Shown here: piece after piece, positions 3,577-48,099 of the stretch
Position numbering within the stretch: position 1 is the stretch's first letter
How the letters are laid out: the number at the start of each line of letters is the position of its first letter
The notes under the pieces: generated by a model
Databases searched by the model: none
What the model was told of the DNA's origin: nothing
What the model saw: only the letters and a program-made list of their open reading frames with translations
Assembly: GCF_050920415.1 (NCBI RefSeq)
Contig: NZ_CP169309.1
DNA length: 64,000 nt
From: Escherichia coli
Lineage (GTDB): Bacteria > Pseudomonadota > Gammaproteobacteria > Enterobacterales > Enterobacteriaceae
Strand: one strand, 5' to 3'
Translations under genes and position numbers: made by a program

Positions 3577-5253
3577 ATGCATCACGCCACCCCGCTTATC
3601 ACCACCATTGTTGGCGGCCTTGTGCTCGCCTTTATCCTCGGCATGCTGGCCAATAAACTACGCATTTCTCCTCTGGTGGGATATCTGTTAGCGGGTGTGC
3701 TGGCGGGACCATTCACTCCTGGCTTTGTTGCCGATACCAAGCTCGCGCCGGAACTGGCGGAGCTGGGCGTTATTCTGCTGATGTTCGGCGTCGGTTTGCA
3801 CTTTTCGCTGAAGGATTTGATGGCGGTAAAGGCCATCGCCATTCCCGGCGCGATCGCCCAGATAGCCGTGGCGACGCTGCTGGGTATGGCGCTCTCCGCC
3901 GTGCTGGGCTGGTCGTTAATGACCGGTATCGTGTTCGGTTTATGTCTTTCCACCGCCAGTACCGTGGTGTTACTGCGCGCACTTGAAGAACGGCAATTAA
4001 TAGACAGCCAGCGTGGGCAAATCGCCATCGGTTGGTTGATTGTGGAAGACCTGGTCATGGTTCTGACGCTGGTATTGCTGCCCGCAGTAGCAGGAATGAT
4101 GGAACAGGGTGATGTGGGCTTTGCCACTCTTGCAGTCGATATGGGGATCACCATCGGCAAGGTGATCGCATTTATCGCCATTATGATGCTGGTAGGTCGC
4201 CGTCTGGTGCCGTGGATTATGGCACGCAGCGCGGCAACCGGTTCCCGCGAGCTGTTTACCCTGTCGGTGCTGGCGCTGGCGTTAGGGATTGCCTTTGGTG
4301 CGGTAGAGCTGTTTGATGTCTCCTTCGCACTCGGTGCGTTCTTTGCCGGGATGGTACTGAACGAGTCTGAACTGAGTCACCGTGCTGCCCACGATACGCT
4401 GCCATTGCGCGACGCGTTTGCGGTGCTGTTTTTTGTCTCCGTCGGAATGCTGTTTGATCCGTTAATTCTGATTCAGCAACCACTGGCGGTGCTAGCGACG
4501 CTGGCGATTATTCTGTTTGGTAAGTCATTAGCCGCGTTTTTCCTGGTGCGACTGTTTGGTCACTCTCAACGTACGGCATTAACTATCGCCGCCAGCCTGG
4601 CGCAAATTGGTGAGTTCGCTTTTATCCTGGCGGGGCTGGGGATGGCGCTGGATCTGCTGCCGCAGGCCGGGCAGAACCTGGTGCTGGCAGGGGCAATCCT
4701 GTCGATTATGCTTAACCCGGTGCTGTTCGCGCTGCTGGAGAAATATCTGGCGAAGACCGAAACGCTGGAAGAGCAGACGCTGGAAGAGGCAATCGAAGAA
4801 GAGAAGCAGATCCCAGTGGATATTTGCAACCATGCGCTACTCGTTGGCTATGGTCGTGTAGGCAGCCTGCTGGGGGAGAAATTGCTCGCCTCTGATATTC
4901 CTTTAGTGGTGATTGAGACGTCACGTACTCGCGTCGATGAGCTGCGCGAGCGCGGGGTCCGCGCAGTATTGGGCAATGCGGCGAACGAAGAGATCATGCA
5001 ACTGGCGCATCTGGAATGTGCAAAATGGCTGATCCTGACGATTCCCAACGGTTATGAAGCGGGCGAGATTGTGGCGTCTGCCCGCGCGAAAAATCCGGAT
5101 ATTGAGATTATTGCCCGCGCCCATTATGACGATGAAGTGGCGTATATCACCGAACGTGGCGCGAATCAGGTAGTGATGGGTGAGCGTGAAATTGCCCGAA
5201 CTATGCTGGAACTGCTGGAAACGCCACCGGCGGGTGAAGTGGTGACGGGGTAA
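3577..5253 (+). CDS. ybaL: CPA2-family cation/proton antiporter with C-terminal RCK/TrkA-N domain (558 aa)
   Basis: N-terminal polytopic membrane domain plus C-terminal Rossmann motif (GYGRVGS); K-12 synteny. Confidence 0.88.
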   Translation: MHHATPLITTIVGGLVLAFILGMLANKLRISPLVGYLLAGVLAGPFTPGFVADTKLAPELAELGVILLMFGVGLHFSLKDLMAVKAIAIPGAIAQIAVATLLGMALSAVLGWSLMTGIVFGLCLSTASTVVLLRALEERQLIDSQRGQIAIGWLIVEDLVMVLTLVLLPAVAGMMEQGDVGFATLAVDMGITIGKVIAFIAIMMLVGRRLVPWIMARSAATGSRELFTLSVLALALGIAFGAVELFDVSFALGAFFAGMVLNESELSHRAAHDTLPLRDAFAVLFFVSVGMLFDPLILIQQPLAVLATLAIILFGKSLAAFFLVRLFGHSQRTALTIAASLAQIGEFAFILAGLGMALDLLPQAGQNLVLAGAILSIMLNPVLFALLEKYLAKTETLEEQTLEEAIEEEKQIPVDICNHALLVGYGRVGSLLGEKLLASDIPLVVIETSRTRVDELRERGVRAVLGNAANEEIMQLAHLECAKWLILTIPNGYEAGEIVASARAKNPDIEIIARAHYDDEVAYITERGANQVVMGEREIARTMLELLETPPAGEVVTG

Positions 5254-5264
5254 GACATTGATTT

Positions 5265-5446
5265 CATTGCCGGATGCGATGCTGGCGCATCTTATCCGGC
5301 CTACAGGTGCCACCTTCCGAAGGTCGGATAAGGCGTTTATGCCGCATCCGACTGTCATTGCCGGATGCGATGTTGACACATCTTATCCAGCCTACAGGTG
5401 CCATCTTTCGTAGGTCGGATAAGGCGTTTATGCCGCATCCGACTGT
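5265..5446. repeat. Two tandem 91-bp units of REP/BIME-type palindromic repeats between ybaL and gsk
   Basis: Unit beginning CATTGCCGGATGCGATG repeats at 5265 and 5356 with a few substitutions; contains GCCGGATGCG...CGCATCCGGC-type palindromes typical of enterobacterial REP elements. Confidence 0.85.
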
Positions 5447-5461
5447 CATCAGTCCGATAAC

Positions 5462-6766
5462 TTAACGATCCCAGTAAGACTCTTCCAGACTGTCTTCACG
5501 CTCCGGTAAGCCGCGCGTTAAACGAGGTGAATGCTGGTTCAGTACCTGATAGCTCACACGGTTAGCATATTTACACACCTGCGCTAATGACGAATACGTT
5601 AACCAGGTGAATTTATGTTTGCTGGAGTTTGGTACGTTGCTACGGTGGTAGCTGTTGGCGGTAATGTCATGCAGCAATGCTGCCAGTGCGCCATCCCCCG
5701 CTCCGTTAGTGTTCATGATTTTTTCCGGCCCGCCCATGTACGGCGCAATGTGCGAATAGACACGCAACGGATTCTGACAATCCTTGTGGCGCATGGCGCG
5801 GCTAAACTCATACTGGTTAAATTCCGCGATAGCGCCCGGCAGCAGCGGATGCTGGGTTTTGCGTTTCGCTTCGTCTTCGGTAAAGCCCGCCATATACAAG
5901 CCGATTGGTCCGGCGGTACACAGCACCAGATCAACCCAGTCCAGCGCCTTGTCAGATGCCAACAACGGATCGCTTTCTCCGGTCAACGCTTCGGCCTCAT
6001 CTTCGTTCATCGCAAGGATAGAGACGTGATCTTTGAGGAATTGCTGCCACCACTGCGGATTCTCGGCAATGACAAACTTGGTGCCCAGCGTCAGCACCAC
6101 CGGTACGTTATATTTCTTCGCGTACTCAATGGCTTTCATGGTTGCTTCCGGCATGGGTTCACCCGGCTTGCAACGCACCAGATAAGAAGTGAGAACCAGC
6201 GCCGAGGCTCCGGCAATCACATCTTCCGGAATACTTTCAGCCCGCAGCTGGTTCATGTGGCCAGGGCTGATAGCAAAGGTACGTTCCCCGGACTCGCCAA
6301 TCAGCGTAAAGCAACGACCAATCGGGCCATCCACGCCTTGTAGATAGTTAAGATCGGTACGGCTGGAGGTGTTACATAGGTAACGATAGGCATAGCTGCC
6401 AATTTCAATATTGCTGCACATGACGCCCAGCAGCACCGAACGGTCGTCCGCGAGCACCGAGTAGTTGTGCATGGTGTTACCAATAGTGCCACCCGCAAAT
6501 TGATGGGTAATCAGGTTTTTCTGTTTCAGCTCCTGATAAAGTGCTTCGGCAACATCATCCTCAATCACCAGTGAATGCCCGGCGCTTAATCCATAACGCT
6601 CAATGAACTCATCATCCACTTTCGCTTCAATATCGACCAGCGTTTGATCGATACCCACTACCCAGGCAGCGCTGGTTTCGTTTTCTGGCTGGAATTGCTG
6701 AAGCAGCGGATCTCGTGCGTTTACGGGAAAATAATGTTTGGATTTACGTTTGCCGGGAAATTTCAT
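5462..6766 (-). CDS. gsk: Inosine-guanosine kinase (434 aa)
   Basis: Full-length ORF recognised as E. coli Gsk; synteny. Confidence 0.88.
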   Translation of the reverse strand: MKFPGKRKSKHYFPVNARDPLLQQFQPENETSAAWVVGIDQTLVDIEAKVDDEFIERYGLSAGHSLVIEDDVAEALYQELKQKNLITHQFAGGTIGNTMHNYSVLADDRSVLLGVMCSNIEIGSYAYRYLCNTSSRTDLNYLQGVDGPIGRCFTLIGESGERTFAISPGHMNQLRAESIPEDVIAGASALVLTSYLVRCKPGEPMPEATMKAIEYAKKYNVPVVLTLGTKFVIAENPQWWQQFLKDHVSILAMNEDEAEALTGESDPLLASDKALDWVDLVLCTAGPIGLYMAGFTEDEAKRKTQHPLLPGAIAEFNQYEFSRAMRHKDCQNPLRVYSHIAPYMGGPEKIMNTNGAGDGALAALLHDITANSYHRSNVPNSSKHKFTWLTYSSLAQVCKYANRVSYQVLNQHSPRLTRGLPEREDSLEESYWDR

Positions 6767-7877: not shown

Positions 7878-8836
7878 CGATACGCAGCAACAAGATTAGC
7901 CATCATTTCGATATGTTCCGGTGTGGCATTAAGCGCCGGAATATATTCGTATTTTTTCCCGCCCGCACCGAGGAAGACCTCACGGTTTTGCTCGGCAATC
8001 TCTTCCAGCGTCTCCAGACAATCTGCAGCAAAGCCCGGGCACATCACCTGAATATGACCTACGCCTTTTTCTCCGAGCATTTTCAGCGTTTCGTCGGTAT
8101 AAGGCATCAGCCAGGGTTCCCGCCCAAAGCGCGACTGAAAGGTCATCATCACTTTTTCCGGTGCCATCCCCAGTACGGAAGCCAGTTCGCGAGTCGTTGT
8201 GCGACAACGTTGCGGGTAATCATCGCCTTCATCGGCATAACGCTGGGGAATACCGTGATAAGAGAGCAGCAGTAGATCCGGTTCGCCATGTTTGGCAAAA
8301 GAAGCACGTACGCTGTTCGCCAGTGCATTAATGTAATCGTGGTTATCGGCGTAATCACGAATAAACGATATCCCCGGAATGCTACGTTTGCGCGCCAGAA
8401 TGCGTGCCAGTTCATCCCATACCGCACCGACCGTTGAACAGGAGTATTGCGGATAAAGCGGCAGCACCACGATATGATCTACATGTTCTGCCAGTAGTTC
8501 ATCTACGGCGCTTTCCAGTGATGGCGAGCCGTAGCTCATTCCCAGCGCCACGGGCGTCTCCGGTAAACGTTGTGCCAGCGCCTGCTGTTGCTGGCGACTG
8601 TAAACCATCAGCGGCGAGCCGCCTTCCATCCAGACCGAGGCGTACAGCTTAGCTACGCGCGGTGAGCGCAGCGGCAAAATTACGCCGCGCAGCAACGGCC
8701 ACCACAACAGCCGTGAGGTATCAACCACGCGTCTGTCGCTTAAAAATTGTTTCAGGTAGCGTTTTACCGCTTCAGGTGTGGGGGCATCGGGCGTACCCAG
8801 GTTTGCCAGCAGAATACCGGTTTTAGTTTGACGCAT
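7874..8836 (-). CDS. hemH: Ferrochelatase (320 aa)
   Basis: Full-length ORF recognised as E. coli HemH; its stop overlaps the aes stop (TTAG shared). Confidence 0.9.
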
Positions 8837-8967
8837 TACCGCCTCTTATCGATTCAACTTGTTGATAATTGTAGCGGAAAAGTGAAGAAGAAGAACTAAT
8901 TGCTGCAAGAGGTATTGCCTGAGGAGAATGAGCAGACCTGCCCGAAAGCAGATCTGCTGCGGCTTGA

Positions 8968-12763: not shown

Positions 12764-14695
12764 TCAAATGGGGCGGATACTTTCTTCATCCAGCTCCGCA
12801 TCGAAGAACCGACGCAGGGTCTGAATATTATTATCCGCAATAATGGACTCGCGCGCCTGCGCAAGTTTTTCTTCGTATATCGCCTGACGCCATTCCAGCG
12901 GCGTACGCACCGCGGGATTATCATCTTCAACGATAGTCAGTTCAACCGTTGAACCTTTTAACGTGCTCAACGCTTCAGCCAGTTTTTGCTGTGCGCCGCT
13001 GTTATTCAGATGACGCTGAGAGGAGCGCAAATGCAGACACACCGTGTTGCCGTTCTCCTCTTTCCAGGCATTTAACGCCACCTGTTCGACCAGTTTTGGT
13101 AGCGAAAGTTGACTCACCTGAGCCGCCCACGGGTCGCGCTCAATGGCTTCTGCCGCCAGCTTCGCCGCCAGTTCCGGCGTTTTTTCATGTTCCAGCGCTT
13201 TTTTTAGCGCCTTCGGCGTGGCGACCACTTCTTTTTGCTGCATCACTGGAGTGGTAGCCTTCCAGCGATACGCTTCTTTTTTGGCTGGTGCTTTTTCCAG
13301 CGCCGATGGCACCGGACGCGCCTGAACGCGATCGGTGACCGAAGCCAGTCTTTCCAGCGCAGCGTTATTCACCGGCCGCGCGCGGGTAGCGGCTGCCGGT
13401 TCACTCTTTTTTGCTTTGGTTGCTCCCTGTGCGCGCTGCAGTTGTTGGCGCGCCGCCAGCACCTGGCTGGTGGTTTCTGAGAGCGGTACAGTCGGTGCCT
13501 GCTGCGGAGCTGATTGCGGTTGCGGCGGCACCTGGGTTGGCGTCATTACTGCCGTTGGCGCGACGGGCGCAAAAGACTGGCGTGGCACTTCTGGCTCAGG
13601 CAGCGGCATACGCGGATGAAACGCCAGTGCGCGCAACAGCGTCATCTCAACGCCCATGCGGCGGTCCGGCGCATACGGTAATTCTTTGCGACCAATCAAC
13701 AGCGTTTGATAGTAAAGCTGAATATCCGTCGGCGGTATGGTGCGCGCCAGTTCACGCATCCGCAGCTCGATGGCGGCCATGTCGTTGCCCAGCGCAGCAG
13801 GGGAAAGTTGCACCATTGCAATGCGGTGCAACAGGCCGAGCATTTCTACCAGCAACGCTTCCCACTCAATACCACGAGCGGCGGCTTCATTAATCAGCGA
13901 CATTACACGCTCGCCGTTGGCTTCAACCATCGCTTCAACCAGCGACAGCGCCTGATCGTCGTCAAGCGTACCCAGCATCGCACTGACCGCCTGAGTTGAA
14001 ACCTGGCCGTCACCGCTGGCAATCGCCTGGTCGGTCAGACTTAAGGCATCTCGCAGGCTGCCTTCAGCGGCGCGCGCCAGCAATTGCAGCGCCCGCGGCT
14101 CGTGAGCGATATGTTCTTCGTTGAGGATGTGCTCAAGCTGATGGCGAATTTGCTCGACATCCAGCGCTTTGAGATGAAATTGCAGACAGCGTGACAAAAT
14201 CGTCACCGGCAATTTCTGCGGATCGGTCGTCGCCAGCAGAAACTTGACGTGCTCCGGCGGTTCTTCAAGGGTTTTTAACAGTGCGTTAAAGCTGTGGCGC
14301 GACAGCATATGCACTTCGTCGATCAGATAAACTTTAAAACGACCACGCGCTGGCGCGTACTGGACGTTATCCAGCAGGTCGCGGGTATCTTCGACTTTGG
14401 TACGCGAGGCGGCGTCGATTTCAATCAGATCGACAAAGCGCCCCTGCTCAATTTCACGACAGTTATCGCACACGCCGCACGGCGTCGCGGTAATGCCGGT
14501 TTCGCAGTTTAGCCCCTTCGCCAGCAGTCGGGCGATAGAGGTTTTTCCGACGCCACGGGTGCCGGAAAAAAGATAAGCATGATGAATACGCCCTAACGAC
14601 AAGCCGTTCGCCAGTGCGGTCAGCACATGTTCCTGGCCGACGACGTCAGCAAAGGTTTGTGGGCGCCATTTTCGGGCTAAGACCTGATAACTCAT
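12764..14695 (-). CDS. dnaX: DNA polymerase III subunits tau/gamma (643 aa tau)
   Basis: AAA+ Walker A (GTRGVGKTS) and Zn-binding cysteines; internal A-AAA-AAG frameshift site. Confidence 0.95.
   Translation of the reverse strand: MSYQVLARKWRPQTFADVVGQEHVLTALANGLSLGRIHHAYLFSGTRGVGKTSIARLLAKGLNCETGITATPCGVCDNCREIEQGRFVDLIEIDAASRTKVEDTRDLLDNVQYAPARGRFKVYLIDEVHMLSRHSFNALLKTLEEPPEHVKFLLATTDPQKLPVTILSRCLQFHLKALDVEQIRHQLEHILNEEHIAHEPRALQLLARAAEGSLRDALSLTDQAIASGDGQVSTQAVSAMLGTLDDDQALSLVEAMVEANGERVMSLINEAAARGIEWEALLVEMLGLLHRIAMVQLSPAALGNDMAAIELRMRELARTIPPTDIQLYYQTLLIGRKELPYAPDRRMGVEMTLLRALAFHPRMPLPEPEVPRQSFAPVAPTAVMTPTQVPPQPQSAPQQAPTVPLSETTSQVLAARQQLQRAQGATKAKKSEPAAATRARPVNNAALERLASVTDRVQARPVPSALEKAPAKKEAYRWKATTPVMQQKEVVATPKALKKALEHEKTPELAAKLAAEAIERDPWAAQVSQLSLPKLVEQVALNAWKEENGNTVCLHLRSSQRHLNNSGAQQKLAEALSTLKGSTVELTIVEDDNPAVRTPLEWRQAIYEEKLAQARESIIADNNIQTLRRFFDAELDEESIRPI
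13406..13412 (-). other. Programmed -1 ribosomal frameshift heptamer A-AAA-AAG in dnaX (codons 428-430); the -1 frame reads GAG then UGA, producing gamma
   Basis: Heptamer located in frame by counting codons from the dnaX start; GC-rich hairpin immediately 3' at about 13372-13400. Confidence 0.85.
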
Positions 14696-16730: not shown

Positions 16731-16835
16731 GCCTGATGCGCTACGCTTATCAGGCCTACACCGCTCCTGCAATATATTGAATTCTTGCGGTTTCGTAGGC
16801 CGGAGAAGGCGGTCACGCCGCATCCGGCATGAACA
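16731..16835. repeat. REP element pair between ybaM and mscK, flanked by two copies of a GGGGC..CTAAATGTC..CCCC motif (16687-16705 and 16859-16880)
   Basis: CTGATGCGCTACGCTTATCAGGCCTACA and GTAGGCCGGAGAAGGCG...GCCGCATCCGGCA palindromic units read directly. Confidence 0.8.
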
Positions 16836-30226: not shown

Positions 30227-30340
30227 GGGTGGGGGCCCTGCCAGCTACATCCCGGCACACGCGTCATCTGCCTTGGCTGCTTCCTTCCGGACCTGACCTG
30301 GTAAACAGAGTAGCGTTGCGGGAGAACCAACAGAGCCCCC
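30227..30340 (-). ncRNA. ffs: 4.5S RNA, the RNA component of the signal recognition particle (114 nt)
   Basis: Reverse complement reads GGGGGCUCUGUUGGUUCUCCCGCAACGC...GGCAGGGCCCCCACCC, matching the E. coli 4.5S RNA as recalled from memory, with the conserved GGAA tetraloop region. Confidence 0.93.
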
Positions 30341-30416: not shown

Positions 30417-30806
30417 ATGCTGGTTTCTTGCGCAATGCGGCTTCACTCGGGCGTTTTTCCAGATTATGCTGAAAAATTACCTCAGGAAGAAAAGATGGAA
30501 AAAGAAGATTCATTTCCCCAACGCGTCTGGCAAATCGTAGCCGCTATTCCCGAAGGCTATGTCACCACTTACGGTGATGTGGCGAAACTGGCGGGATCGC
30601 CCCGCGCCGCGCGCCAGGTGGGTGGTGTGTTAAAGCGTCTCCCGGAAGGCAGCACCTTGCCCTGGCATCGGGTGGTTAATCGCCACGGCACCATTTCGCT
30701 AACCGGACCGGATTTACAGCGTCAGCGACAGGCATTACTGGCAGAAGGTGTGATGGTGTCAGGAAGAGGGCAAATCGACTTGCAGCGTTATCGCTGGAAC
30801 TACTAA
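30417..30806 (+). CDS. atl: Alkyltransferase-like protein Atl/YbaZ (129 aa)
   Basis: MGMT-like fold with PWHRV replacing the catalytic PCHRV (Cys to Trp). Confidence 0.85.
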   Translation: MLVSCAMRLHSGVFPDYAEKLPQEEKMEKEDSFPQRVWQIVAAIPEGYVTTYGDVAKLAGSPRAARQVGGVLKRLPEGSTLPWHRVVNRHGTISLTGPDLQRQRQALLAEGVMVSGRGQIDLQRYRWNY

Positions 30807-30836
30807 CCCTCTCCGGGCGGAGAGGGTTAACTTCGC

Positions 30837-31409
30837 TTAATATTGCGTAGGAGCCGGAACTGCCGAAGACGGATTCACCTGGGTTGGTGAGGTCGAAGGT
30901 ACGGTAGTCGTTGCGCCACCGCTGGCCTGAACCGGCACGGCGGTTTGCTGCACCGGCACTAATGTCAGGTCCGCTTTGGTCCCGCCCTGGTTGATCACCG
31001 GCTGAACGGTATCGGTGATAAATACCAGTTTGTCATTCACGGTAATCGCCGCACTCAACAGAATACGCGCGTTCGGCTGAACGTCTGCCGGGTTAAATGG
31101 CAGAACAAAGCTGAATGGTGACTGTTTACCTTCAGTACGCACCGCTTTTTGCGCCAGCACTTTTGACGGTGCATCGGCTAATGATGCGTCAGAAAGTGTC
31201 ACGGTCAGCACGGCATCAGGCGGCAGTGCGACTTTCTGACGGATCCAGACGGTACCGGAAACATTCGGTTGCTGGATAGCAGGTTGCTGTGTTGCTGAAA
31301 TAGACGTATTTGCAGCCGGTGCTGGCGTCTGAATATCCGCGCTTTTATCTGCGCAAGCCGCCAACGCAATCGCAACCGCTAAACCACTGGCCATGTGCAC
31401 GAGTTTCAT
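30837..31409 (-). CDS. ybaY: Lipoprotein YbaY (190 aa)
   Basis: Signal peptide with lipobox (LAACA); syntenic position. Confidence 0.8.
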   Translation of the reverse strand: MKLVHMASGLAVAIALAACADKSADIQTPAPAANTSISATQQPAIQQPNVSGTVWIRQKVALPPDAVLTVTLSDASLADAPSKVLAQKAVRTEGKQSPFSFVLPFNPADVQPNARILLSAAITVNDKLVFITDTVQPVINQGGTKADLTLVPVQQTAVPVQASGGATTTVPSTSPTQVNPSSAVPAPTQY

Positions 31410-31626
31410 TTACTTCTCCTTATTATCAATGCACCAGCGGGCTAACTTTCCTCGCCGGAAGAGTGGTTAACAAAATAGTAACGTCAACAAGTGTGGCACA
31501 CATCACGCATTTCTGCCTGTAATTGGCTAGTAATTCAGACTATTGCACCCATCGGACCAGTGGCAAATTTGCGTTATACTCAACTCACTTTGGCTTGCTG
31601 CGGCAGCTTTGTTACTGGAGAGTTAT

Positions 31627-32487
31627 ATGAGTCAGGCGCTAAAAAATTTACTGACATTGTTAAATCTGGAAAAAATTGAGGAAGGACTCTTTCGCGGCCA
31701 GAGTGAAGATTTAGGTTTACGTCAGGTGTTTGGCGGCCAGGTCGTGGGTCAGGCCTTGTATGCTGCAAAAGAGACCGTCCCTGAAGAGCGGCTGGTACAT
31801 TCGTTTCACAGCTACTTTCTTCGCCCAGGCGACAGTAAGAAGCCGATTATTTATGATGTCGAAACGTTGCGTGACGGTAACAGCTTCAGCGCCCGCCGGG
31901 TTGCTGCTATTCAAAACGGTAAACCGATTTTCTATATGACAGCCTCTTTCCAGGCTCCGGAAGCGGGTTTCGAACATCAAAAAGCTATGCCACCCGCACC
32001 CGCACCTGATGGCCTGCCTTCAGAAACGCAAATCGCCCAATCGCTGGCGCACCTGCTGCCGCCAGTGCTGAAAGATAAATTCATCTGCGATCGTCCGCTG
32101 GAAGTCCGTCCGGTGGAGTTTCATAACCCACTGAAAGGGCATGTCGCAGAACCGCATCGTCAGGTATGGATCCGCGCAAATGGTAGCGTGCCGGATGATC
32201 TGCGCGTTCATCAGTATCTGCTCGGTTACGCTTCTGATCTTAACTTCCTGCCGGTAGCTTTACAGCCGCACGGCATCGGTTTTCTCGAACCAGGGATTCA
32301 GATAGCGACCATCGACCATTCCATGTGGTTCCATCGCCCGTTTAATTTGAATGAATGGCTGCTGTATAGCGTGGAGAGCACCTCGGCGTCCAGCGCACGC
32401 GGCTTTGTACGCGGTGAGTTTTATACTCAGGACGGCGTGCTGGTTGCCTCGACCGTTCAGGAAGGGGTAATGCGTAATCACAATTAA
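31627..32487 (+). CDS. tesB: Acyl-CoA thioesterase II (286 aa)
   Basis: Starts [31 protein letters not shown]; track ORF is an upstream extension. Confidence 0.9.
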
Positions 32488-32493
32488 AAAAAT

Positions 32494-32525
32494 AGCCGGA
32501 GGTGAAAACCGTCCGGCTGTTTTTT
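32494..32525. terminator. Bidirectional rho-independent terminator between convergent tesB and amtB
   Basis: AGCCGGA...TCCGGCT stem flanked by an A-run upstream and a T-run downstream. Confidence 0.75.
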
Positions 32526-32535
32526 GCAGTGCTTA

Positions 32536-33822
32536 TTACGCGTTATAGGCATTTTCGCCGTGGCTGTTGACGTCCAACCCTTCTCGCTCCTGTTCTTCCG
32601 GTACACGCAGACCAACCGTCAGATCCGCCAGTTTGTAGCCAATAAACGCCACCACACCGGACCAGACAATCGTAATGGCAATGCTTTCCAGCTGTACCAG
32701 CAACTGATGGCCCATCGTCACACCTTCAGCGAAGCCCACGCCGCCCAGCGAGCTGGCGGCAAAAATCCCGGTCATGATACAGCCGACAATGCCACAAACG
32801 CCGTGCACACCGAAAACATCGCAGGGATCATCCACCCGCAGCAAGCGTTTGAGCATGGTAACGCCCCACAAGCCCGCCAGACCAGCTACCACGCCGATAA
32901 TCAACGCGCCGCCAACACCAATGTAGCCACAGGCTGGCGTCACGCCGACCAGACCGGCAATCGCGCCTGAACACGCTCCCAGCAGTGAAGGCTTACCACG
33001 CAGCGCCCATTCACCGAAGATCCAGCCAAGAATTGCCGCCGCCGTTGCGACCACAGTATTCACAAATGCCAGTGCTGCGATTTCATTCGCCGTGCCCGCT
33101 GACCCGGCGTTAAAGCCAAACCAACCGATATAGAGAATGGCAGTACCGGTAAAGACCATCGGCAGGTTGTGCGGTTTAAACGCCTCTTTGCCGAAGCCCA
33201 CGCGTTTGCCAATTAGATATGCGCCCACCAGACCTGCAATTGCGGCGTTAATGTGCACCACCGTGCCACCCGCAAAATCCAGCGCACCGTGAGAAGCCAG
33301 CAAACCGCCGCCCCAGACCATATGCGCAATCGGAATGTAAGAGAGCGTCAGCCACACCACCACGAAAATCAGCACAGCTGAGAAGCGGATCCGTTCCGCC
33401 AGCGCCCCGACGATCAAGCCTACGGTAATGCAGGCAAACGATCCCTGAAACGCCACGTGGATATACTGATAAATGCTGCCCATCACCGCCGTCAGTTCGA
33501 TGTTTTTCAGCATCAACCAGTTAATGTTGCCAAAGAAGTTGTTGCCCTCACCAAACGCCAGCGAGTAACCGTAAACCACCCAGAGAATACAGACCAGTGC
33601 AAACGTCACCGTCACCTGCGTCAGCATCGACAGCACGTTTTTGCCGCGAATTAACCCACCGTAAAACAGGGCAATCCCCGGAATAGTCATAAACAGCACC
33701 AGCGCAGTACAAATCATCATAAACGCATTGTCGGCTTTATCGGCCACCGCAGGTGCAGCCATTACCAGTCCCGGCAGCATCGCCAGTGAAGCAAGCCCAG
33801 TTTTTATCGTCGCTATCTTCAT
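32536..33822 (-). CDS. amtB: Ammonium channel AmtB (428 aa)
   Basis: Signal peptide plus 11-TM Amt fold; downstream of glnK. Confidence 0.95.
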   Translation of the reverse strand: MKIATIKTGLASLAMLPGLVMAAPAVADKADNAFMMICTALVLFMTIPGIALFYGGLIRGKNVLSMLTQVTVTFALVCILWVVYGYSLAFGEGNNFFGNINWLMLKNIELTAVMGSIYQYIHVAFQGSFACITVGLIVGALAERIRFSAVLIFVVVWLTLSYIPIAHMVWGGGLLASHGALDFAGGTVVHINAAIAGLVGAYLIGKRVGFGKEAFKPHNLPMVFTGTAILYIGWFGFNAGSAGTANEIAALAFVNTVVATAAAILGWIFGEWALRGKPSLLGACSGAIAGLVGVTPACGYIGVGGALIIGVVAGLAGLWGVTMLKRLLRVDDPCDVFGVHGVCGIVGCIMTGIFAASSLGGVGFAEGVTMGHQLLVQLESIAITIVWSGVVAFIGYKLADLTVGLRVPEEQEREGLDVNSHGENAYNA

Positions 33823-41950: not shown

Positions 41951-41975
41951 GCCGGATGCGGCTTGAGCATCCGGC
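41951..41975. repeat. REP-like 9-bp-stem hairpin between convergent queC and fadM
   Basis: GCCGGATGC-GGCTTGA-GCATCCGGC. Confidence 0.6.
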
Positions 41976-47912: not shown

Positions 47913-47995
47913 AGAGCTCTCTCTTAGTTTAATTTCCGCCAGGTAATCAGATGACACGACTGTGCTTCACGCCATCTATTAACATGTACGTCAGT

Positions 47996-48024
47996 ATATG
48001 GGGATGTTTCCCCCACATTCAACG
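47996..48024 (-). promoter_or_regulatory. Sigma32 heat-shock promoter of lon: -35 GTTGAATG, 14-nt spacer, -10 CCCCATAT
   Basis: Minus strand reads GGCGTTGAATGTGGGGGAAACATCCCCATATACTGACG. Confidence 0.75.
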
Positions 48025-48037
48025 CCGAGAATAGAGG

Positions 48038-48071
48038 AAAAATTAAAGGGGAGATAAAATCCCCCCTTTTT
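48038..48071 (-). terminator. Hairpin terminator between clpX and lon
   Basis: GGGGAGA-TAAAA-TCCCCCC stem with T-rich flanks on both strands. Confidence 0.6.
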
Positions 48072-48099
48072 GGTTAACTAATTGTATGGGAATGGTTAA

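Follow-up and report, generated by a model that had tools for sequence, protein, structure and literature searches.

REPs are imperfect palindromes of 30 to 40 nt with an internal mismatch in the stem (Ton-Hoang et al. 2012, PMC3333891). In the Gilson/Bachellier classes, as reviewed in the same paper, a BIME-2 is built of y and z2 REPs in tandem copies with short linkers, in numbers that vary between strains. A short S linker stands between the REP and the inverted REP, and an s, l, or r motif on the other side. In vitro, BIMEs are cleaved and recombined by TnpA_REP, and models for the addition of units exist (PMC3333891). Gyrase cleavage is enriched in BIME-2, with y REPs preferred (Sutormin et al. 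2019, PMC6379681). The array REP325 (naRNA1-6) of Escherichia coli K-12 lies between yjdM and yjdN, and its units were labelled Z2-l-Y by Qian et al. (2015, PMC4550694). A 2026 preprint describes REP325 as a partly Rho-dependent terminator and a stabilizer of the upstream mRNA, and reports an association between REPs in convergent intergenic regions and higher expression of both neighbors (Harris et al. 2026, doi 10.64898/2026.03.23.713779). According to the same preprint, REP effects are context-dependent, and terminal REPs do not uniformly lengthen half-lives.

We analyzed a 64-kb stretch of E. coli DNA (the window), in which TRF found only one tandem repeat with a score of at least 50. This array (5264-5449) has a period of 91, 2.0 copies, 92% matches, 0% indels, and a score of 323. 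A repeat search returned two head-to-tail copies, 5264-5354 and 5355-5445, which are identical at 84 of 91 positions and align without indels. The array lies wholly between the stop codons of two convergent genes and is therefore extragenic. We took the gene names, ybaL and gsk, from the RefSeq annotation of a 100%-identical record (NZ_CP169399.1, E. coli MFDS1022581). The spacer between the genes is 208 bp long and is almost completely filled by the array. From the ybaL stop codon (5251-5253), it is 11 nt to the start of the array and 15 nt to the first REP stem. At the other end, 18 nt separate the last REP stem from the gsk stop codon (5462-5464, complement). When the 208-nt spacer was compared with itself, 84 positions matched at lag 91; in 200 shuffles, the best 91-nt match had a mean of 35.5 and a maximum of 41.

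An earlier note on this DNA had proposed that a 91-bp REP/BIME unit is duplicated in tandem between ybaL and gsk, and TRF, the repeat search, and the RefSeq gene names bear this out. The interval it gave, 5265-5446, denotes the same array within 1 to 3 nt of 5264-5445, the phase of a tandem repeat being arbitrary, and the self-comparison confirmed the periodicity it had wanted checked. The "handful" of differences it saw between the copies comes to seven positions (5282/5373, 5285/5376, 5287/5378, 5298/5389, 5313/5404, 5317/5408, and 5320/5411). It also held that the units contain REP-type palindromes, and each has two: those at 5269-5300 and 5360-5391 share one orientation, and those at 5323-5352 and 5414-5443 are inverted. 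We considered an assembly artifact as the source of the duplication and ruled it out, as 15 complete genomes independently show two units at this site.

Within each unit, the parts follow the order Y REP (32 nt), CTAC, 14-nt linker, G(A/T)AG, inverted Z2 REP (30 nt), and 7-nt linker (Table 1). Three of the four REPs carry the conserved REP tetranucleotide at the base of the palindrome, which reads GTAG or CTAC depending on the strand (CTAC at 5301-5304 and 5392-5395, GTAG at 5410-5413), and the fourth has GAAG at 5319-5322. The Y palindrome of unit 1 reads GCCGGATGCGATGCTGGCGCATCTTATCCGGC, of which the palindrome in unit 2 is a variant; the inverted Z2 palindrome, GTCGGATAAGGCGTTTATGCCGCATCCGAC, is identical in both units. 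Y REP 2 differs from Y REP 1 by a compensatory change from C-G to T-A at stem pair 14-19, a loop change from G to A, and a change from G to A at 5389, which produces a C.A on the + strand and a G.U on the - strand. Beyond the Y REPs, the two units differ by three linker changes.

Table 1. Coordinates of the array, its parts, and its surroundings in the window.
Feature	Position	Strand	Basis or remark
ybaL, 558 aa	3577-5253	+	ORF list and annotation of the identical record; 3' UTR runs into the array
Shared haplotype block, ~0.5 kb (ybaL -54 to gsk +237)	5200-5698		Bounded by recombination breakpoints; common to two-unit E. coli
Repeat unit 1, 91 bp	5264-5354		TRF, repeat search, unit dissection; Y REP to start of tail linker
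Y-type REP 1	5269-5304		32-nt palindrome 5269-5300 plus CTAC 5301-5304
14-nt head linker of unit 1, AGGTGCCACCTTCC	5305-5318		Between CTAC and GAAG; REP325 equivalent has 17 nt
Z2-type REP 1, inverted	5319-5352		GAAG 5319-5322 (non-canonical GTAG) plus 30-nt palindrome 5323-5352
Rfam RF02564 naRNA4 match, 63.1 bits (gathering 59.5)	5322-5392	+	Z2 REP 1, tail linker, and Y REP 2 (the unit junction)
7-nt tail linker TGTCATT	5353-5359		Joins Z2 of unit 1 to Y of unit 2; ~13 nt in REP325; 6-nt deletion in Rfam alignment
Repeat unit 2, 91 bp, matching unit 1 at 84/91 positions	5355-5445		TRF, repeat search, copy comparison
Y-type REP 2	5360-5395		Palindrome 5360-5391 plus CTAC 5392-5395
14-nt head linker of unit 2, AGGTGCCATCTTTC	5396-5409
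Z2-type REP 2, inverted	5410-5443		Canonical GTAG 5410-5413 plus palindrome 5414-5443
Terminal tail linker TGTCATC	5444-5450		First part of a third period; the array reaches 5449 in TRF
gsk, 434 aa	5462-6766	-	ORF list and annotation of the identical record; convergent, 3' UTR reaches the array from the opposite end

In REP325, the parts follow one another as in the array (Y, CTAC, linker, GTAG, Z2, linker). The array's Y and Z2 REPs are identical to those of REP325 at 27 of 32 and 27 of 30 positions, and most of the differences fall in compensating stem pairs; two of the differences between Y REP 1 and the REP325 Y form such pairs. In other respects the arrays diverge: REP325 has 5.8 copies of a 100-bp unit between co-oriented genes, whereas the ybaL-gsk array has 2.0 copies of a 91-bp unit between convergent genes, at a different locus and with linkers of 14 and 7 nt instead of 17 and ~13 nt. 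Both ybaL-gsk linkers are short, and the 7-nt one is unlike the l linker of REP325. Because the RefSeq record of MG1655 lists no repeat features at gsk-ybaL, the Y/Z2 classification rests on REP325, and by this comparison we assign 5264-5445 as a two-unit BIME-2-type array. Like BIME-2 arrays of E. coli in general, it consists of alternating inverted Y and Z2 REPs with short linkers, in head-to-tail units, outside genes. The copy number at its locus varies between strains, and units within a locus resemble each other more than units from different loci. It is atypical in having only two units and in the replacement of GTAG by GAAG in one REP. Its REP stems show compensatory variants that are typical of the lineage (GCCGGATGCGATGC... 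for Y and GTCGG...CCGAC for Z2). With the 182-bp array as megablast query, the median number of matched places in an E. coli genome was 5.

All four palindromes (32, 30, 32, and 30 nt) fold at -12 to -21 kcal/mol on either strand, and the internal mismatch is conserved. The hairpin of Y REP 1 reaches -20.7 kcal/mol on the + strand and -20.6 kcal/mol on the - strand, and that of Z2 REP 1 reaches -15.6/-16.6 kcal/mol. The hairpin of Y REP 2 has -12.0 (+) and -16.4 (-) kcal/mol, the + strand being weakened by the change at 5389. Compared to shuffles, the folding of the whole spacer gave z scores of -5.9 (+ strand) and -6.4 (- strand). We then looked at covariation in small alignments of the distinct Y and Z2 variants from all the loci that we had collected. 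In the Y stem, 96.6% of cells were paired and three pairs were altered on both sides; in the Z2 stem, 100% were paired and two pairs were altered on both sides. When the partner was slid by one to three columns, pairing fell to 23 to 44% for Y and to 23 to 47% over Y and Z2. One of the Y compensations, C-G to U-A at pair 14-19, is a difference between unit 1 and unit 2 of the array. The hairpins are kept by compensatory substitutions. This conservation of the palindromes fits selection on RNA hairpins, DNA cruciforms, or single-stranded DNA substrates of a transposase alike.

The closest E. coli paralogs are the arrays at caiF-caiE and loiP-speB, with 83 to 89% identity, both of which also lie between convergent genes. 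They share the 32-nt Y core with the ybaL-gsk array, and their Z2 cores are identical or nearly so; at caiF-caiE, ST131 has one unit, whereas AMSCJX03 has two, with a period of 90 bp. The linkers at these two loci are unrelated to those at ybaL-gsk, and the array in the window is therefore not a recent copy of either. Elsewhere in the window, a second REP pair lies at 16731-16830 and consists of a short Y-type REP (GCCTGATGCGCTACGCTTATCAGGCCTAC), a linker of ~36 nt, and then GTAGGCCGGAGAAGGCGGTCACGCCGCATCCGGCA; this BIME stands alone, is not repeated in tandem, and has a long linker. Isolated matches to REP half-sites occur at 41951, 54718, and 63874.

To follow the site across strains, we took a census of ybaL-gsk alleles in 5,426 complete E. 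coli genomes at a query coverage of at least 80%, where the counts are lower bounds and ~170 genomes are unclassified. Most genomes (~4,654) carry the K-12 type, in which GTAG-Y, a 14-nt linker, and Z-CTAC form an element of opposite polarity that is not tandem. A single Y REP (the EC31/ST648 type, with an 83-nt spacer) was found in 583 genomes and the two-unit form in 15. One 91-bp unit was present in a single genome (AR_0077), and three genomes had a diverged single unit beside an inserted cassette. For other lineages, genome contigs were scanned with a degenerate pattern for the gsk C terminus. Escherichia albertii has a lone Y REP, "E. coli" E69 one unit, and "E. coli" SCPM-O-B-8794 two units, and Escherichia whittamii has three units in a 299-nt spacer with a 91-bp period. 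Escherichia sp. MOD1-EC7003 carries the K-12 type, and Citrobacter amalonaticus carries an unrelated three-unit BIME array. The earlier note had expected such arrays to vary between strains and had suggested comparing copy numbers. That expectation held: the site contains a single REP or one, two, or three units, and most E. coli strains have a different BIME there.

The K-12-type element occupies the same intergenic site as the array and likewise pairs a Y with a Z. Unlike the array, it runs from GTAG-Y to Z-CTAC, so that the polarity is opposite and the tetranucleotides are outermost. Its Y is of the GCCTGATGCG type and its Z has a GTGAAC-type loop, with 14 nt between them and no tandem arrangement, and it can be aligned to the window's array at the REP cores only. 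Judged from these sequences, the Y(+Z2) family is widespread in the genus Escherichia at ybaL-gsk, and we infer that the K-12 type is the derived state.

Other insertions and REPs were seen at the same site. Three E. coli strains, including 2013C-4282 (NZ_CP027579.1, locus 7912-8880), have a cassette of ~1 kb between ybaL and gsk, whose two small hypothetical genes (150 aa and 98 aa) overlap and have no Pfam match above the cutoff. The cassette interrupts the first Y REP in its 5' arm (…TAAGACATTGATTTCATT / TCCGGATG / ATTACCC…) and is followed by a duplicated, diverged remnant of the ybaL 3' end and a diverged one-unit BIME. A junction similar to that of the cassette occurs in Escherichia sp. 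E1V33. The Y REP appears to have served as the insertion target of the cassette. The three-unit array in the ybaL-gsk spacer of C. amalonaticus has a period of ~100 bp (GTAGGCCGGATAAGGCGTTTACGCCGCCATCCGGCA … GCCTGATGGCGCTTCGCTTATCAGGCCTAC), and other Citrobacter and Enterobacter species have single REP-like palindromes in this spacer. The ybaL-gsk site is a recurrent landing place of REPs across the Enterobacteriaceae.

The differences between the two units allowed us to consider the age of the duplication. Among two-unit E. coli strains, the copies of unit 1 differ by 0 to 3 positions and those of unit 2 by 0 to 1, whereas unit 1 differs from unit 2 by 7 to 11. Across strains, the unit-1 copies group together, and so do the unit-2 copies. 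Since the differences between the units are common to the two-unit strains, the duplication predates those strains; by this comparison it is old and not a fresh local event. The earlier note had found the differences between the copies consistent with local duplication or gene conversion. Duplication stands, albeit as an old event whose differences are fixed across independent two-unit strains, whereas we found no positive evidence for conversion. The window departs from the other two-unit strains at 5264 and 5342, in both cases in the state of unit 2, and this does not make a case for conversion between units. The C at 5342 is also what all other units that we examined from outside the clade of two-unit E. 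coli have, and it is probably, in the simplest reading, ancestral and not converted; 5264 is a single change. The duplications in E. coli, SCPM-O-B-8794, and E. whittamii may go back to one event or to several; the comparison covers 91 nt with 5 to 13 differences. Units 2 and 3 of E. whittamii share a GCGTGC linker signature, which suggests an independent step.

The array and its flanks differ in how closely they match other strains. The array has 3 to 4 positions that differ from the other two-unit strains, whereas the ybaL 3' ends are 6 to 9% divergent. We considered this discordance, with flanks differing by up to 9%, as a peculiarity of the array and resolved it as a block of ~0.5 kb (Table 1) that is shared among these strains and has breakpoints on both sides. 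Compared to strain 2020CK-00188, the block contains three differences, all within the array; outside the block, the strains depart from the window solely at third codon positions, and these differences fall into clustered blocks. The flank pattern is an ordinary mosaic of homologous recombination and not a property of the array. Over the last 450 nt of ybaL (4804-5253), divergence among the E. coli strains compared reaches 9 to 10%; the 3' end of gsk (5462-5911) was also compared. Several of the strains compared share the YbaL protein accession WP_000546224.1.

Several two-unit strains have a ybaL 3' end that is 95.6% identical to that of E. whittamii, against 90.4% to K-12. At 30500-33500 of the window, 25 kb away, the nearest relatives are RMDEC465 (99.2%), 2013C-4282 and WL297 (98.8%), and E200086 and others (98.6%). 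These relatives carry the ybaL-gsk alleles described here, and all other genomes are at 95 to 99%. If, as the pattern suggests, the carriers belong together in a rare, deep lineage, the rarity of the allele in the collection would follow. Strains E200086, E400634, and E600003 (NZ_CM128605.1, NZ_CM128600.1, and NZ_CM128598.1) have an insertion of an IS200/IS605-family tnpA in the amtB-tesB-ybaY region that the window lacks.

Because ybaL and gsk are convergent, the array is the 3' UTR of both genes and not just of the upstream one: its + strand belongs to the ybaL transcript and its - strand to the gsk transcript. For an influence on the mRNA stability of the upstream gene, which the earlier note had ascribed to such arrays, the support comes from the literature (Harris et al. 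2026, doi 10.64898/2026.03.23.713779). A unit may have been seeded and amplified by RAYT/TnpA_REP activity, by slippage or unequal exchange between the direct repeats, or by both. Transcripts from both sides would run into the array, where four stable hairpins could block 3'-to-5' exonucleases and so protect both, and could also act as leaky, partly Rho-dependent signals of termination or insulation. The copy number could then tune the mRNA levels of ybaL and gsk. On DNA, the Y REPs are probable sites of DNA gyrase binding and cleavage. By analogy with other BIMEs, the functional steps at ybaL-gsk (mRNA protection, gyrase, and RAYT) are likely. Two features of the array depart from the standard pattern: the GAAG of one REP (5319-5322) differs from the GTAG needed by TnpA_REP, and Y REP 2 has a stem mismatch on the + strand. 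Taken as a whole, the reading as a BIME-2-type array that originated by RAYT activity or slippage, forms hairpins on both convergent transcripts, and holds probable gyrase sites is one that we regard as very likely. Liang and Deutscher reportedly observed that ribosomes can stall at termination, with tmRNA tagging as a result, when a REP lies within ~15 nt of a stop codon. At ybaL, the distance from the stop codon to the first REP stem is exactly 15 nt (window 5254-5268).

An Rfam search gave only four gathering-level matches in the window, and one of them is to naRNA4 at the junction of the two units. Taken at face value, it would make the array a gene for a naRNA4-like, nucleoid-associated RNA that binds HU, bridges DNA cruciforms, and condenses the chromosome. 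The score of 63.1 bits exceeds the gathering threshold of 59.5, and the match covers the full length of the model (1-77). HU binding and DNA condensation have been reported for naRNA4 itself (Qian et al. 2015, PMC4550694), which is a discrete RNA processed from REP325. The model, however, is built on one Z2-l-Y unit of REP325, and any BIME-2 junction resembles it for that reason. The alignment of 5322-5392 requires a 6-nt deletion in the linker, the same interval scores 49.2 bits on the - strand, and partial units score 33 to 35 bits. A scan found no promoter-like site near the array, and the locus is not yjdM-yjdN. Furthermore, REP325/naRNA4 was reported to cause no measurable nucleoid compaction and to act locally as a 3'-UTR element, by a group that includes Adhya, the senior author of the 2015 naRNA4 paper (2026 preprint, doi 10.64898/2026.03.23.713779). 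The match is a family resemblance and not evidence of a small-RNA gene, and we consider such a gene improbable here. The other gathering-level matches are to the sraA sRNA (47984-48079, +), the dnaX ribosomal frameshift element (13367-13431, -), and the small SRP (4.5S) RNA (30236-30332, -). Together with ybaL and gsk, the order of these features presumably places the window at ~0.45 to 0.51 Mb of the K-12 map, in reverse orientation.

Stable GC-rich hairpins directly downstream of both stop codons could also be expected of an intrinsic (Rho-independent) terminator of the classical kind that serves ybaL and gsk in both directions, and 78 REPs fall within earlier-predicted bidirectional terminators between convergent genes (2026 preprint, doi 10.64898/2026.03.23.713779). 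A terminator scan nevertheless found no hairpin followed by a T-run on either strand of 5254-5461, and over 4900-5900 it returned only 5834-5857, inside gsk. The stems of the array are followed by TGTCAT and CTACAG and not by U-tracts, which makes an intrinsic terminator distinctly improbable; any termination at the array would be leaky or Rho-assisted and is already part of the BIME-2 reading. The pairing of a Y REP with an inverted Z-type REP is likewise a trait of BIME-1 (PMC3333891), and the array might on this basis be a BIME-1/RIP-type element for IHF binding. BIME-1, however, is present in single copy and has a long conserved L linker with an IHF site (PMC3333891), whereas the ybaL-gsk unit is tandem and has linkers of 14 and 7 nt. 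Neither strand of the ybaL-gsk spacer has a match to the IHF consensus WATCAANNNNTTR, and the array's Z REP agrees with the REP325 Z2 at 27 of 30 positions, against BIME-1. We exclude BIME-1 because of the missing IHF consensus, the tandem arrangement, and the short linkers, and give it very little weight. Least credible, to the point of being negligible, is a small protein encoded by the ORFs of 51, 61, and 63 codons listed at 5258-5413 (+, 51 aa, TTG), 5264-5449 (-, 61 aa, ATG), and 5274-5465 (+, 63 aa, ATG). The period of 91 equals 3 x 30 + 1, which means that the copies are read in different frames, and one-unit and three-unit alleles would therefore encode unrelated tails. The substitutions preserve base pairing rather than reading frame, and the RefSeq annotation of the identical record does not include the three ORFs.

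The BIME-2-type array between ybaL and gsk is an ordinary feature of a well-known kind, and K-12 carries a different element at the same site. It is a further example of REP/BIME turnover at a fixed intergenic site and leaves the current understanding unchallenged. What is added here is the assignment of Y and Z2, an explanation of the naRNA4 match, the allele census, and a series of 0.5, 1, 2, and 3 units across Escherichia. For annotation, the value lies in showing that neither the Rfam naRNA4 call nor the spurious ORFs of 51 to 63 codons should be taken as a gene. Tentatively, and with doubt prevailing, ybaL-gsk may be a stepwise natural series across Escherichia (lone Y, one, two, and three units, and the opposite replacement) in which copy number sets the stability or read-through of the ybaL and gsk mRNAs, or in which the steps bear junction signatures of RAYT amplification. 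If so, ybaL-gsk would offer an in vivo test, already provided by nature, of BIME growth and of the effect of each additional unit. The 0.5-, 1-, 2-, and 3-unit alleles and the replacement allele could serve as a natural dosage series with which to test a recent proposal, namely that REPs act as tunable dials in the 3' UTRs of convergent genes.
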